56,223 nt of DNA from a virus (lineage: Duplodnaviria > Heunggongvirae > Uroviricota > Caudoviricetes). Under the pieces are notes generated by a model, which saw nothing but the letters and a program-made list of their open reading frames with translations, did no database searches and was not told where the DNA came from. The translations under genes and the position numbers were made by a program. Below, one piece after another: positions 13,109-27,277 of this stretch (its first letter is position 1; each line of letters begins with the position of its first letter). The stretch is from positions 625 to 56,847 of IMG/VR virus record IMGVR_UViG_3300011008_000036; one strand, 5' to 3'.

Positions 13109-15317
13109 ATGAGTAAATATAAAAAAACTAAGATATACACATTTAAATGTGAAAAATGTGGACAAAATTATACAATTACACAACAAGGTTTAAAATTACG
13201 ACAAAATAAAAAGTATCCAAATCTTTGTCCAAAGTGTTTAAAAAAGTATTTAAATAATTTGAACAAAGTTCCAGATTTTTATGAATTGGAATGTGAAAAA
13301 TGTCATAAAAAATATAAAATAAGTAGAATTAATTATAACCAAAGGAAACGAATGAATAGACCAAACTATTGTCAAGAATGTGCTAAACAAAACGGTATAA
13401 ATATACGAAAGAAAAATAATGTAAAGAAATCTAAAAAAGAAAAAGAAAAATTAAATAGACGAATTAGCAAATCATTGAAAAAATATTTTGCTGATAAAAA
13501 ACAACCAGATATTATTGAATTAAATTGTGATAGTTGTTATAGAAAATATACTATTACAAGATCAGCATATAAAAATAGAATTAAAAATAATATACCAAAT
13601 TTGTGTCCAGAATGTATGAGAATTCATAGTAATAAATTAATAGGAGAATCTCAAATAAAATTATGGAATGAGAAATCACCTGAAGAACAACAAAAGCAAA
13701 TTGATAGATTATTCAATATATCTGATGAAAAGAAATTACTTAAAAATCAAAAAGCTGCTAAAACTAAAAGTATTAATTATCAAAATAAAACTAATGAAGA
13801 AAAGAAAGAATATTATTAATTATCAAAATAAAACTAATGAAGAAAAGAAAGAATATTCCAATATTCGTAAAGAATCTTGGAACAGAAAAACAGAATTAGA
13901 AAAACAAGAATTTATACAAAAGCAACAACAAATTTGGAATGATAAATCACAAGAAGAGAAAGAACAACAAATTCACAATTTACATGATCTTACAGAAATT
14001 CAAGAATTACTTAGAAGATCAAAAATATCTGCTAAACATAAATTAAGATATGAAAACCAAGAAGAACGCGATAGAACTGGAAAAGCTGTAATTGAAGGAC
14101 TATCTAGAATGTCAACTGAAGCTAAAATTAAAATGAGATCAACTCAATTGGTAAATTCTAAAGGTAAAAATCAATTTCATAAAGATTTTGAAAATTTATT
14201 TAATACTTCAGAATTAGCTAAACAATTCTATTTTAATTGTGAAATACCTATATCTAGTAATGATATAATTCATTTTTGGGATTATGGAATATATAACAAA
14301 CATGGTGATTTAGAATTATTATTAGATTTAGATGGATCTTATTTTCATGCTGATCAATGTGATTATAATGGATATTATTCAAAAGAAGAATATGATGAGA
14401 AAAGATATTTATCTATTCCAAATAATATTAAATCATGTATTATATATGAAAATAAATTTGATGATTGCTTTAATTATTTAGAAAAAATATTAAAACTATC
14501 ATATGATAGATTTATAAAAAATAAATATGAATATTTTAGAAATGTTGAATTTCCATATCCTAAATATTATAATAAAGAATTACAATCATCATTCAATGAT
14601 TTATTGAAAATGAATTGTGAAGATAATCATCATATTAATAATTTATCACTTAATACCAGATTAGGTGATCGATTAATTTACCATTTTCATCCTAGTATAT
14701 TTAAAGATCATTATAATGATAAATTATCTCCATATGATATATGGAATGATAATAAATCTTTAATGAATTTAATGAATTTAATTAAATCTAATGCATTATT
14801 ACATAATCATTTCAATATGAATAAAATATATCAAAGTTTTAATTTGAATAGTAAGATTAGATTCATGAGTGCTGGACGAGCTAAATTAATTATTAATAAA
14901 TATCTGAATGATTATGGTATTATATTTGATCCATATGATAAATATTCAAATATATTATTAGGAACTATATCATCTGATAAAGAATATATTGGAATATTTG
15001 ATGAAGAAATAAAATTTAGTGAATCATTACAACTATTAATATTCTTAAGAAATGATTTTAAAGAATATGCTAGTAATGCTAAAATATACTATAATGATTA
15101 TTTCATAAATAGTAATGTTTTACATTATCCATGTTTATTCACATCATTATATGATAATAATAATTGTGATGATATGATTACCAGATATATCGATAGATAT
15201 AAATGTAATAAATATGTATTTGTAGTTAATAATACAGAGAAGTATGTAAATAATATAGTGGAAATAATTAAAAATAAAAATTATTATGATGAATATATTA
15301 TATTAATAGAAAAATAA
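13109..15317 (+). pseudogene. Triple Zn-ribbon + Vsr/EDxHD-like nuclease + degenerate methyltransferase fusion, frameshifted by a 43-nt tandem duplication
   Basis: Duplication at 13771-13813/13814-13856; removing one copy gives a single 721-aa ORF; nuclease motif WDYG...LDLDGSYFH. Confidence 0.75.
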
Positions 15318-21504: not shown

Positions 21505-21744
21505 ATGGCTACAGATATAACAATTGTACAACAATCTGATTTAGATAAAGCTATTGATGAAATTGGTACTCAAGTAAAAAATAATTATTTGAAAAAAAGT
21601 GAAGCTAGTAGTACATATGCAACTAAAACTGAATTAACAAACACTGCTGGTGATACAGCACTTGAAAATAAAGTTACTACTATCATGAGTAGTTATACTT
21701 TTTCAGTTGATAATAATGGAAATTTGATTTTAACAACTCCTTAG
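21505..21744 (+). CDS. Small tail-fibre-associated-like protein (79 aa)
   Basis: SD AAGGGG; T/S/A-rich; ends FSVDNNGNLILTTP; lies next to the DGR target. Confidence 0.6.
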   Translation: MATDITIVQQSDLDKAIDEIGTQVKNNYLKKSEASSTYATKTELTNTAGDTALENKVTTIMSSYTFSVDNNGNLILTTP

Positions 21745-21826
21745 AAATTGAATAAAAAAACTATTGACATTATATACTATAATTAATAATTTATGAAATC
21801 TTAAAAAATTAGGAGGTAATTGTTAA

Positions 21827-21964
21827 ATGGCTACATATAATTTAGGAAAAGTAGTTGGACCACAAGGTGAACCTGGACCAACTGGACCTGCTGGAACATC
21901 TGCATCAGTTAGTATTGGTACAGTTATTACAGGAACTATCTGCATAAGATTCAAACTGAGTTAA
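21827..21964 (+). pseudogene. Internally deleted copy of the DGR target gene (45-aa ORF)
   Basis: First 37 codons nearly identical to the start of 22115-24193, then a jump to a GCATAA-containing homolog of that gene's 3' end and downstream element. Confidence 0.85.
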
Positions 21965-21971
21965 AGGATAT

Positions 21972-22066
21972 GTGAATTAATAATATAATGAAGCGTAGCG
22001 AAATTATATTATTAAGAGGAGAAACATGCGTTTCTCCTTTCATTATTCCCTAAATATTTTTTGATA
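21972..22066 (+). repeat. 95-nt direct repeat, copy 1 (double-hairpin element)
   Basis: Identical to 24217-24311. Confidence 0.92.
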
Positions 22067-22089
22067 CATTATCCATTATATACTATAAT
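22061..22089 (+). promoter_or_regulatory. Sigma70/sigmaA-type promoter candidate for the DGR target
   Basis: TTGATA-N17-TATAAT, 25 nt upstream of the ATG and its AGGAGG SD. Confidence 0.55.
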
Positions 22090-22114
22090 TAATAATTTAG
22101 GAGGTACTTGTTAA

Positions 22115-24193
22115 ATGGCTACATATAATTTAGGAAAAGTAGTTGGACCACAAGGTCCACAAGGTGAACCTGGAGCAACTGGTCCTGCTGGAACAGCTGC
22201 ATCAGTTAGTATTGGTACAGTTATCACAGGAACTAATGCAGCAGTAACGAATTCAGGTACTGCATCAGCAGCTGTATTTGATTTTGTGATTCCAAAAGGT
22301 GATAAGGGAGATCCTGGAGATCCGGGAACTGCAACAGCAGCTGATGTCGCATATACAGATACAAACAATAAATTTGAAGCAGCCGACAATGTAAATACTG
22401 TTCAAAAAGCTATTGATAAATTAGCTGAAGGTGGTATTGGTGGAGCAAACATTCCGATGAATACACTTACTGTGAAATTTCTTGATGAAAATAGTATTGA
22501 ACACATGGGCTCAACAATTCAAGTTATTTCAGGTGGCATGTATGATGTAAGTGATACTGTTCCACCAACTGGATATGTACTTGATGGATTAGCATCTGGA
22601 TCAGCAGCTATTACAGGAGCAATGACATCTGACAAAACAGTTATTTTCAATATTTGTGTGGACAATTGGAATTCTACTAATAATACATTAACTGGTGGGG
22701 ATGAGATTGCTGACAAATATGAAGTTGTATTTAATTATGTTTCCGGTGGTGATGGTACTGTTACGGGTACAACTACTAAAGTTGTAAGTCTTGGTGTTGG
22801 CAATTCATCAGGAACTGTAACTCCAGGTGTTGATGGAATTACATTAACTCCAAATACATTATTTAAATTCAAAAAATGGGATATTGATCCAACAGAACCA
22901 ATGAACGTAACTGGTGGACAAACATATACATTTACAGCACAATTTTCAAATTATGAGAAATACTCATTTTATGTTGATACGACAAAATCAGTACCAACAG
23001 AAATGATTGTATACCCAGGTTCAGATTGTGATAATGTTAATTATACACCTGCTGGACTTAATACTAATAATGTATTCAGTTATGGTGACTGGGGTAATGC
23101 ATTCTTTATACAAAACACAAAACCATGTATGTTGAAATATGATGGCACAGTTGATTATTATCTAAATAAAAATAATTATAATCAAAAAGAAGATGGAACT
23201 GCTCATAGTAATTTAAATAATACATCATATGGTGGAAATGTTATGATTGAATTCCCACAGATTTGGATTTGCGTTTCCGAGTTAGCTGAAGATGGTGCTT
23301 CTGAAACTAAACCAAGAATCTTTGTATCTGATATGGATATTAGTGATTCTACACATACATATCATGCATATGCTCATACTGATTTCAATGGTAATTTAAT
23401 TGATAAGATTTATATGCCAGCATATGAAGGTTGTAATGTTAATAATGTACTTCGTTCACTTTCAGGACAAACTGTAATGGTTTCACAGACAGGAATTACA
23501 GAGAGAATTTATGCTCAAAAGAATAATCCTTCAAAATCAACAATTACTGCAGTTACACAAGATCCAGTATCTTGGGATATGAGTCCATTATGTGATCATG
23601 AACTTCTTATGATTCTTTGCTTATTAATTTCGAAATCTACTGATAATCAAACAGCTTTTGGTAGAGGATTATGTTCCATGTCAGCTGCTACGAAAACAGG
23701 TGGAAATTCAAGTATTTCTGATACTAGTGGTTTCTTCTATGGTACAAATGCTAATGGAACTACACCTGTTAAAATTTTCGGTATTGAAAATCCGTGGGGA
23801 AATGTTTGGATGAGAAAAACTGGATGCGTAAGAGATGCTAGTAAAAATCTTAGAATTAAAATGACTCCTCCATATCTTACAGATCCTGCATCTGAAACTA
23901 CATTATTAGCCACATATGAAAATATTGGTTTATATAGTGGCGGAGATGGATATGTTAAAGGTTGTGTATTTAACGAATATGGAATTTTTCCAGCTGTTGG
24001 AGGAGGATCTGAAACAACGTATTATTGTGATTATCAATATGGAACAGGATCCGCTAATACCTTTGCCTTGTTTGGTGGAGACTGGGGTTATGGATCGCGG
24101 TGTGGTCTTTTCTATTGGAGCTTGGCTGATGCGGTGTCCCACGCGGGCCCGAGCATTGGTTCATCCGTTTCTTGTAAACCATTAGCAGCATAA
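22115..24193 (+). CDS. DGR target protein: collagen-like N-terminus, repeat/Ig-like modules, C-terminal CLec-type variable domain (putative receptor-binding protein or adhesin)
   Basis: GPQGPQGEPG repeats; GIENPWGNVW and ALFGGDW...SIGSSVSC typical of DGR CLec targets; VR at the extreme C-terminus. Confidence 0.9.
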   Translation: MATYNLGKVVGPQGPQGEPGATGPAGTAASVSIGTVITGTNAAVTNSGTASAAVFDFVIPKGDKGDPGDPGTATAADVAYTDTNNKFEAADNVNTVQKAIDKLAEGGIGGANIPMNTLTVKFLDENSIEHMGSTIQVISGGMYDVSDTVPPTGYVLDGLASGSAAITGAMTSDKTVIFNICVDNWNSTNNTLTGGDEIADKYEVVFNYVSGGDGTVTGTTTKVVSLGVGNSSGTVTPGVDGITLTPNTLFKFKKWDIDPTEPMNVTGGQTYTFTAQFSNYEKYSFYVDTTKSVPTEMIVYPGSDCDNVNYTPAGLNTNNVFSYGDWGNAFFIQNTKPCMLKYDGTVDYYLNKNNYNQKEDGTAHSNLNNTSYGGNVMIEFPQIWICVSELAEDGASETKPRIFVSDMDISDSTHTYHAYAHTDFNGNLIDKIYMPAYEGCNVNNVLRSLSGQTVMVSQTGITERIYAQKNNPSKSTITAVTQDPVSWDMSPLCDHELLMILCLLISKSTDNQTAFGRGLCSMSAATKTGGNSSISDTSGFFYGTNANGTTPVKIFGIENPWGNVWMRKTGCVRDASKNLRIKMTPPYLTDPASETTLLATYENIGLYSGGDGYVKGCVFNEYGIFPAVGGGSETTYYCDYQYGTGSANTFALFGGDWGYGSRCGLFYWSLADAVSHAGPSIGSSVSCKPLAA
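24065..24178 (+). repeat. DGR variable repeat (VR)
   Basis: 114 nt aligned without gaps to TR; 19 mismatches, all opposite TR adenines (14 A>G, 4 A>C, 1 A>T). Confidence 0.97.
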
Positions 24194-24216
24194 TATTCAG
24201 AGGAGTTAAAGGAGAG

Positions 24217-24311
24217 GTGAATTAATAATATAATGAAGCGTAGCGAAATTATATTATTAAGAGGAGAAACATGCGTTTCTCCTTTCATTATTCCCTAAAT
24301 ATTTTTTGATA
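24217..24311 (+). repeat. 95-nt direct repeat, copy 2, downstream of VR
   Basis: Hairpin 24222-24260 (13-bp stem, loop GAAGCGTAGCGAA) and hairpin 24262-24283 (AGGAGAAAC-ATGC-GTTTCTCCT). Confidence 0.92.
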
Positions 24312-24577
24312 TATTATCCATTATATCCATAATTAAAAAATTTTTTACCTCATAATCCCCATAATATTCATAACATTTATAATATTATAATATTATGGAT
24401 ACTGACGGTATGTCATTGATAATTGCTCATAAATAAAAATCTAATAACAACTATACATATTATTAATAGATTTCCCAAATTATTCATGATATTTTTATTA
24501 AATTTGATTGTGTTTGATAAAAATATTTTCTTTCTTATTATAATACTCATTAACTTTTTTCTTTCATCATAATATTT

Positions 24578-24607: not shown

Positions 24608-24872
24608 TATATTTATTTCTCCATTTGATAATATATACTAATATATAAAGTTTTTGATAATATTTATAATATCCAATATTCATTAAAAATAAAAAAATGT
24701 TAATAACAAAAATAACCAGTATAAATATTATTAAAACATGATAATTTGATTAAATGATTTAAATTAGAATAAATTTAAATCTTGAATAAAAATGTGGTCT
24801 TTATATTTATTAGGTTTTATTTGACGCAAAAAATAGCATATGGATTTCGTTGCTACGGAAAAACACTATAAT

Positions 24873-24986
24873 GCCTTATTTGGTGAAAACTGGAATAATG
24901 GATCGAAATGTGGTCTTTTCTATTGGAACTTGAATAATGCGGTGTCCAACACGAACACGAACATTGGTTCATCCGTTTCTTGTAAA
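24873..24986 (+). ncRNA. DGR template repeat (TR)
   Basis: Non-coding copy of VR rich in AAC/AAT codons (33 adenines); diverges from VR immediately after TGTAAA. Confidence 0.97.
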
Positions 24987-25468: not shown

Positions 25469-26557
25469 ATGAAAAGCTATTCAAATCTTTGGGAAAAATT
25501 TACCGATTATGACAATATCGTAAAGGCTATGCGACAAGCAGCACTCCACAAACAGAATTATGTTGAAGTCAATGTCATGCTAAAAGATCCTGATCGTTAT
25601 GCAGATGCTATATTAGATTATGTAAATGCATTTAAAAATTATAATCATATTCCTGTTGTAATATATGAAGGTGTACACAGAAAGAGACGAGAAATTATTG
25701 CTCCTGCATTTGCAGAACAAGTTGTTCATCATATGATTGTACAAGTATTAATGCCAATGTTTACACGAGGATTATACAAACATACATATGCATCAATTCC
25801 AAAACGAGGACTACATCAAGCTGCTAAACAAATAATAAAATGGATATCTAAAAATGATAAAAATGTTAAATATTTTTTGAAAATGGATATACGTAAATTT
25901 TTTGAATCTATCGATATTGAAATACTTAAAGATATGCTACGAAAATATGTGAAGGATGAAAAATTTTTAAATCTTGTATTTAAGATACTAGATGATCACA
26001 AAGGTCTTCCATTAGGATTCTACACATCCCAATGGTTCGCTAATTGGTATCTTCAAGATTTGGATCATTTTATAAAAGAAAATTTAAAGGCTGTCCATTA
26101 TGTTCGATATATGGATGATATGGTACTGTTTGGACCAAACAAAAAAGAATTACATAAACAACGATTATTGATAGATAATTGGTTGCGAAACAAACGAAAT
26201 CTTCAATTGAAAGATAATTGGCAAGTTTGTCGATTTATTCACATATCTAGAAAAGATGGAAAAGAAAAAGGAAGACCATTAGACTTTTTAGGTTTTCAAT
26301 TTTATCGTAATCGACTAATATTGCGAGAAAGTTTAATGTTGAAAGCTACCAGAAAAGCTAACACAATTTCGAAAAAAGATAGACCAACCATATTTGATTG
26401 TCGACAAATGATGTCATATAATGGATTTTTTCATATGACTGATTGTCATGATATGTATATGAAATATGTATTTGGAAAGACAAATTTTAAACGTATGAAA
26501 AAATACATTAGTAAATGGGATAAAAAACACGGAAAAGAATCTAAAATTAATTTTTAA
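25469..26557 (+). CDS. DGR reverse transcriptase
   Basis: KMDIRKFF, GLPLGFYTSQWFAN (the SQ motif typical of DGR RTs), YVRYMDD, DFLGF; adjacent TR/VR pair. Confidence 0.96.
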   Translation: MKSYSNLWEKFTDYDNIVKAMRQAALHKQNYVEVNVMLKDPDRYADAILDYVNAFKNYNHIPVVIYEGVHRKRREIIAPAFAEQVVHHMIVQVLMPMFTRGLYKHTYASIPKRGLHQAAKQIIKWISKNDKNVKYFLKMDIRKFFESIDIEILKDMLRKYVKDEKFLNLVFKILDDHKGLPLGFYTSQWFANWYLQDLDHFIKENLKAVHYVRYMDDMVLFGPNKKELHKQRLLIDNWLRNKRNLQLKDNWQVCRFIHISRKDGKEKGRPLDFLGFQFYRNRLILRESLMLKATRKANTISKKDRPTIFDCRQMMSYNGFFHMTDCHDMYMKYVFGKTNFKRMKKYISKWDKKHGKESKINF

Positions 26558-26647: not shown

Positions 26648-26917
26648 ATGGATTTAAAATGGCATGTTAGTAGAAGTACAGTTGAACCTGAATTAGTTGA
26701 TGAAACATCTTCAGATAATTTAGTACTTGTTCGTAGAAATGTTCATACGATAGTTGTAAAGGATAAGATGGACGATACAGAAACTACTTTATTTGAATAT
26801 GATGAAGCATTTCCCACAAAGACAGAATATGAGCTCTATAAAATCTATCAAGAAAATATTGAAGCTCATACTAATCTTGAGTTAGCTGTTGCTGAAGCTG
26901 TAGAAGCAATGATGTAA
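26648..26917 (+). CDS. Small tail-associated/chaperone-like protein
   Basis: RSTVEPELVD...VRRNV and a C-terminal LELAVAE, resembling genes that follow tail fibres in Firmicutes phages (recollection). Confidence 0.55.
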   Translation: MDLKWHVSRSTVEPELVDETSSDNLVLVRRNVHTIVVKDKMDDTETTLFEYDEAFPTKTEYELYKIYQENIEAHTNLELAVAEAVEAMM

Positions 26918-26936
26918 TGAAAGGAAGAGATTTATC

Positions 26937-27050
26937 ATGGTAAAGTTATATGTTGATTTGATTAAAAAAGGATTAAGAACATTAGCAGATGTTCCTGAGA
27001 AGTGGAAAAAAGATGTTGAAGCTGCTTTACAGGAAGAATCTGATAAATAA
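26937..27050 (+). CDS. CD1375/XkdX-like small protein (37 aa)
   Basis: MVKLYVDLIKKGLRTLADVPEKWKKDVEAAL; not in the ORF track; its TAA overlaps the next ATG. Confidence 0.7.
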   Translation: MVKLYVDLIKKGLRTLADVPEKWKKDVEAALQEESDK

Positions 27051-27277
27051 TGCAATGTCCAAATTGTATGAGTATTAATGTTACATTGGTTGGAAATACA
27101 CACTATATTTGCAATAATAAAAATTGTAATCGATATGGCAAACGTACACAATTTTATGTAACACAAGATAAAGAAGTAAAATTTCCATATACTCAAATAT
27201 TTAAAGATAGACAACTATCTGAGTTTTATAAAAAACAATATTTGAAGATAAAAGATGTTGGAAACACTCAATTATAG
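27050..27277 (+). CDS. Small zinc-ribbon protein
   Basis: MQCPNC...CNNKNC. Confidence 0.65.
   Translation: MQCPNCMSINVTLVGNTHYICNNKNCNRYGKRTQFYVTQDKEVKFPYTQIFKDRQLSEFYKKQYLKIKDVGNTQL

Follow-up and report, generated by a model that had tools for sequence, protein, structure and literature searches.

An emptied copy of the target cassette beside the intact target of a jumbo-phage DGR

Tandem duplication followed by deletion between direct repeats is a general route by which prokaryotes and phages amplify and lose genes, and silent-cassette or site-specific swap systems are exemplified by pilS/pilE, vls, shufflons and integron cassettes. Among DGRs, about 15% have several targets and 13% have two (Wu et al., PMC5758913), and duplication is the usual explanation for the multi-target elements (PMC10743442). 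According to Guo et al. 2011 (PMC3240598), efficient homing in Bordetella phage BPP-1 requires a hairpin/cruciform downstream of the variable repeat (VR). No FGS/C-type-lectin domains of the DGR-diversified kind were reported in a survey of 224 jumbo phages (PMC7824862), which lends some interest to the jumbo-phage context of the DGR described here. We found no account of emptied DGR target cassettes in the literature.

The intact DGR and its host record

The window is the whole stretch of 56,223 nt that was analysed (positions 625 to 56,847 of IMG/VR record IMGVR_UViG_3300011008_000036). The virus record that holds it is linear, 120,847 nt long, with 26% G+C and an estimated completeness of 45%. 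A divergent family B DNA polymerase (PF20286) and a fragment of an RNA polymerase beta subunit mark it as a phiKZ-like jumbo phage. The features of the locus are compiled in Table 1.

Table 1. Features of the DGR locus and of the emptied cassette, in window coordinates.
Feature	Position	Strand	Remarks
79-aa upstream gene	21505-21744	+	synteny anchor; in L024 and L033 the single target is preceded by homologues of 113/114 aa
Promoter-like motif of the remnant	21764-21790	+	TTGACA, spacer of only 8 nt, TATAAT
Left breakpoint motif of the putative duplication	21768-21790	+	part of the remnant's promoter-like motif
Shine-Dalgarno (SD) AGGAGG of the remnant	21811-21816	+	read from the sequence
First 37 codons of the duplicated target	21827-21938	+	35/37 aa as in the intact gene; one PQG unit fewer
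45-aa fusion ORF	21827-21964	+	from the frameshifting deletion; on record only in the window's contig and the sister contig
Old last codons, out-of-frame stop, post-stop spacer	21939-21971	+	7 substitutions in 32 aligned nt
Direct repeat, copy 1	21972-22066	+	95 nt identical; hairpin 1 at 21977-22015, hairpin 2 at 22017-22038, -35-like TTGATA
Duplication junction	22061-22096	+	downstream-type DNA meets upstream-type DNA at the common motif
Unit absent from the sister assembly (L022/L023)	22067-24311	+	2,245 nt, exactly the intact cassette
Intact DGR target	22115-24193	+	692 aa; collagen-like N-terminus; C-terminal C-type-lectin-fold tail protein domain
Variable repeat (VR)	24064-24178	+	19 mismatches to the TR, every one at a TR adenine
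Direct repeat, copy 2	24217-24311	+	same double hairpin, 3' of the intact target
Template repeat (TR)	24872-24986	+	identical TR in the deletion allele
DGR reverse transcriptase (RT)	25469-26557	+	362 aa; Pfam RVT_1, E = 3e-18; identical in the deletion allele

The locus has the hallmarks of a DGR, namely differences between TR and VR at adenines only (19/19 mismatches, among 33 TR adenines), an RT of the DGR type, a ligand-binding C-terminal fold that bears the VR, and a hairpin 3' of the VR. The RT is 42% identical to RTs of Butyrivibrio phages, followed by those of Faecalibacterium phages, and its close homologues adjoin TR/VR pairs. The target matches the tail protein family PHROG 5302 (E = 4e-71), and the model of its C-terminal domain (pLDDT 89.7) has TaqVP as its best Foldseek match (E = 7e-8), followed by Mtd; this family assignment and the TaqVP/Mtd-like model suggest a receptor-binding role. 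Three copies of the related target have differing VRs. In the 120.8-kb contig, which is about 45% complete, the TR matches a single VR, and the remnant described below contains none.

Three small genes (89, 37 and 75 aa; window 26648-27277) lie 3' of the RT in all close relatives; searches of Pfam and PHROGs returned no Avd match for these ORFs, and the 37-aa one matches PHROG 1382, a family of unknown function.

Structure of the emptied cassette

Positions 21768-22066 are confirmed as a second, emptied copy of the DGR target cassette, which retains the promoter-like motif, the SD sequence, 37 codons, the double hairpin at the 3' end and the old stop codon, although the last is no longer in frame. 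The two parts of the remnant, compared with the genome by BLAST, gave E-values of 2e-52 and 2e-61, far beyond chance. The original prediction of an emptied second target cassette was right in that the 5' and 3' ends align and the middle is gone, and its details also hold: the SD and first 37 codons copied with a few substitutions and a 9-nt indel, a jump to the stop and downstream element of the target, and the loss of about 2 kb with the VR between two preserved ends. The homology starts earlier than had been described, however, at 21768, with a 23-nt exact motif (equal to 22074-22096) followed by an 18-nt indel. Positions 21809-21938 then align to 22097-22235, with one substitution in the SD spacer and four in the 37 codons (P/A, S/A and two silent), and the remnant is without one 9-nt PQG unit of the intact gene. 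This 5' part carries 5 substitutions in 152 aligned nt, and its homology ends at 21938/22235.

Position 21939 pairs with 24185, so that 22236-24184 (1,949 nt), including the VR and the IMH region, are missing. The remnant is therefore no DGR target, and the DGR cannot home there. The join also shifts the reading frame, by which the old stop is bypassed and the 45-aa ORF is produced. The hexamer GCAGCA is found at both deletion ends in the intact gene (22238-22243 and 24185-24190), a coincidence to be read against the roughly 2% of trials in which two random 12-nt windows have a common 6-mer; the actual junction is 2 nt net shorter than a GCAGCA deletion predicts, and a 2-nt TA join in the diverged copy fits equally well. 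We give very little credence to the readings in which the DGR itself made the deletion, by misplaced integration of cDNA, or in which the 45-aa ORF is a working small protein. No TR-derived sequence was found at the join, which rules out a deletion written through cDNA, and the ORF, while it retains an SD and a start codon, belongs to a cluster with one member, on two near-identical contigs.

The duplication junction creates a promoter-like site, TTGATA-17-TATAAT, ahead of the intact gene. It is a weak candidate for the promoter of that gene, because our scan returned 6 such sites against 5.6 expected and the late genes of jumbo phages may not use promoters of this kind. A chimera of a remnant-only and an intact-only strain was also considered and is unlikely, since the DNA upstream of the intact gene is a unique downstream-to-upstream junction, which exists only in a tandem or circular arrangement.

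Each copy of the 95-nt repeat folds into two hairpins: a 13-bp AT-rich stem, topped by a 2-bp stem and a GNA loop, is followed by a 9-bp stem that ends in a 4-nt loop. Five sequences preserve every one of the 24 pairs, with compensatory changes at five pairs, a covariation that provides modest evidence since the sequences are few and related; the hairpin downstream of the VR has a z of -7.2. The layout GTGAATT, hairpin, AAGAG, hairpin recurs 3' of the VR in loci that were chosen by TR/VR pairs alone, without a motif filter (L001, L002, L006, L021, L024, L039 and L045). As an element that follows the target stop, with a variable first hairpin and covarying stems (21972-22040 and 24217-24285 in the window), it is found in the same loci and in L026 and L033, and it is a candidate homing signal of this DGR clade. 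By analogy with BPP-1, a role of the double hairpin in homing is plausible; the second hairpin could instead be a terminator.

Divergence between the remnant and the intact cassette is uneven, with 7/32 substitutions beside the junction, 0/95 in the core and 5/152 at the 5' end (Fisher p = 4e-5 and 1e-3). Such a pattern is not accounted for by neutral decay alone; it requires selection on the core or gene conversion. The first 33 nt of the 3' copy hold the 7 substitutions and one indel, and two changes of the remnant lie within the purine run preceding GTGAATT, in which the four closest relatives agree. These two changes, the frameshift and the 8-nt promoter spacer are signs of decay.

Alleles of the locus and age of the duplication

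The ENA contig ERZ3810914 NODE_172 (L022/L023) encodes the unchanged RT and the upstream 79-aa protein, shows 0 substitutions relative to the window over 22.8 kb, and carries the remnant base for base. Mis-assembly of the remnant is rejected, as it is identical in ERZ3810914 and its substitutions and junction are not derivable from the intact copy. An allele with the intact target deleted had been anticipated, and it is present in this sister assembly: removal of 22067-24311 from the window gives L023 exactly over 6 kb. The cut lies between the two identical 95-nt repeats. In the contig, the bases ahead of the repeat are of the remnant type and those beyond it of the downstream type, which is what a crossover inside the repeat predicts.

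Judging from the assemblies, we favour the zero-copy allele as real, although a short-read collapse would look alike. It is quite unlikely, in our estimation, that the allele is an assembly collapse beside a real remnant in a static locus. The two assemblies have no SNP over 22.8 kb and the perfect 95-nt repeat is longer than the usual metaSPAdes k of 55, as a collapse would have it; the skipped loop, however, is normally output as its own contig, here of about 2.2 kb, and no such target protein is on record. In the two length ranges searched (30-379 aa and 380-1211 aa), near-identical pieces of the target are on record from no other contig, that assembly included, which is expected if the target is truly absent. 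The window and L023 also differ by 9-nt and 43-nt tandem units, too short for collapse in the usual assembly graph, and these indels point to distinct haplotypes. The 43-nt tandem duplication (window 13766-13851) splits a 718-aa ORF into ORFs of 236 and 549 aa, and the 9-nt one is located at about 14759-14776; both are absent from the otherwise identical L023. The two sequences thus resemble different haplotypes of a phage in which repeats readily give rise to indels, although the 9-nt and 43-nt differences may also be errors confined to the record of the window.

Besides the deletion allele, the ENA sample contains another related DGR phage, whose RT is 82% identical (L026:1-1900) and whose contig begins exactly at the stop codon of the target and the element that follows it. 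Contigs of this phage, the closest relative, stop at or after the downstream element.

L024 (217 kb; RT of 363 aa, in a cluster about 77% identical) and the Logan contig L033 are syntenic with the window locus. In both, the upstream gene leads straight into one 490-aa target, and neither a remnant nor a repeat is found at the slot. The remnant starts 82 nt after the upstream gene, which is the position of the single target in these relatives (99-100 nt). Of its 37 residues, 35 are identical in the neighbouring intact gene, 29 in the JGI fragment P0003, the closest N-terminal relative, and 18 in the L024 target. Because the relatives are without a remnant, and because the remnant is nearer to its neighbour than to the target of any relative, the duplication appears to be recent and lineage-specific on present sampling, in which the slot is covered by only three contigs of one related clade. 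The notion of an ancestral two-target DGR is thus retained as a recent duplication within one lineage, while a deep ancestral state is unsupported by L024 and L033, with their single targets. The P0148 and P0126 loci have single targets where DNA was obtained.

Two side observations concern these relatives. In L024, a NUMOD4-HNH endonuclease gene sits between TR and RT (L024:12442-13185). In P0003, the target of the closest relative, residues 10-170 comprise several extra collagen-like/TVTTG modules, so the N-terminal stalk of the target also varies in length by gain and loss of repeats.

Number of targets does turn over in this DGR clade, as indicated by a more distant jumbo phage, L006 (IMGVR_UViG_3300033463_000006, 244 kb), which has two intact targets in tandem, followed by identical downstream elements, and in addition two orphan VR relics. 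The latter (L006:6100-6400) are tandem VR-only fragments upstream of the TR. They keep an open frame and VR-type 3' ends, differ from the TR at 12 and 19 non-adenine positions and have no hairpins; they are remains of earlier targets or, possibly, variants in storage.

The window had also been proposed to contain a slot through which genes are gained and lost. Loss is borne out by the sister assembly; gain is not, as neither a different or extra gene nor a nearby recombinase was found. Alleles with a full gene in the remnant's slot were sought in related genomes and none was found in the few contigs that cover it, where only one-copy, zero-copy and unduplicated forms occur; searches of viral and metagenome contigs with DNA patterns returned nothing useful, and nor did an RNA polymerase alignment in viral contigs, look-ups of P0003 and P0248, or a scan of metagenomes with P0003. 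We consider it unlikely that the locus is a functional slot in which the repeats are kept to drop, amplify or swap the diversified tail gene (0, 1, 2+ copies), with the remnant as an empty site. The identity of the 95 nt between diverged flanks, the zero-copy allele with intact TR and RT and the turnover seen in L006 would suit such a slot, but neither a two-intact-copy nor a foreign-gene allele was found, the repeat is absent in the relatives, no recombinase family is on record among the Pfam matches of genes within about 10 kb, and the remnant is decaying, its core being conserved for other possible reasons. Equally doubtful is a duplicated double hairpin that serves as a reusable recombination site, switching the target between zero, one and several copies or moving targets between related jumbo phages; if true, such a switch would add a copy-number layer to DGR diversification.

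Proposed history and comparison with known systems

The history that we regard as probable consists of a recent tandem duplication, an internal deletion in the first copy, and repeats that permit the loss of the working gene. A single ancestral cassette would have lain between similar promoter-like motifs (21768-21789 and 24319-24339), and recombination or slippage between them would have produced a head-to-tail duplication with a hybrid junction at 22067-22096. The first copy, in the ancestral position, then lost its 1,949 nt, VR and IMH included, through a short-homology deletion with a frameshift, as its structure shows, so that it makes no receptor-binding protein and offers the DGR no target. 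The 95-nt core may have been kept identical by selection on the hairpins or the -35 box of the intact gene, by gene conversion, or by both. Recombination between the repeats would finally remove the intact gene, as seen in the assemblies, after which the known sequence would contain no target for TR and RT. The predicted reciprocal product, an allele with two intact copies, was not seen among the contigs examined.

Read in this way, the locus would be a snapshot of a change in the number of DGR targets, with the duplication, the death of one copy and the repeat-mediated loss of the other caught as two states in genomes that are nearly identical. Should the zero-copy allele prove real and common, the phage could do without the tail protein for some time at least, and a single step would suffice to produce "orphan" TR-RT pairs. 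As a candidate for the homing signal, the covarying double hairpin that follows the stop codon can be tested. The known mechanism of DGRs is unchanged by these findings, which describe a clear but mostly ordinary case of duplication and decay.

Compared with BPP-1 (Guo et al. 2011, PMC3240598), the locus shares adenine-specific TR/VR differences, a DGR RT, a tail target with a C-type-lectin fold, and a 9-bp stem with a 4-nt loop 3' of the VR. It differs in that no avd gene was recognised, that the host is a phiKZ-like jumbo phage, and that there are two hairpins, of which the first is AT-rich and covarying; in addition, the 4-nt loop has the sequence ATGC and a distance of about 80 nt to the VR, whereas the examples in PMC3240598 have GRNA loops at 4-34 bp. 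In multi-target DGRs, tandem paralogous target cassettes are likewise associated with one TR/RT, each with its own downstream element, and L006 is an intact jumbo-phage example. Here, in contrast, the second cassette has neither a VR nor an IMH of its own, so the element is a single-target one and the duplicate is a relic and a substrate for deletion.

Silent-cassette and swap systems, too, have an incomplete gene copy beside a variable surface gene that is expressed, but the remnant comprises only constant ends without a variable region and therefore stores no alternative specificity. The locus behaves as a decaying tandem duplication of the ordinary kind, with a short-homology junction, one decaying copy and the precise loss of one repeat unit; unlike in the general case, the unit is a tail gene diversified by a DGR, whose loss leaves a TR and an RT without a known target.
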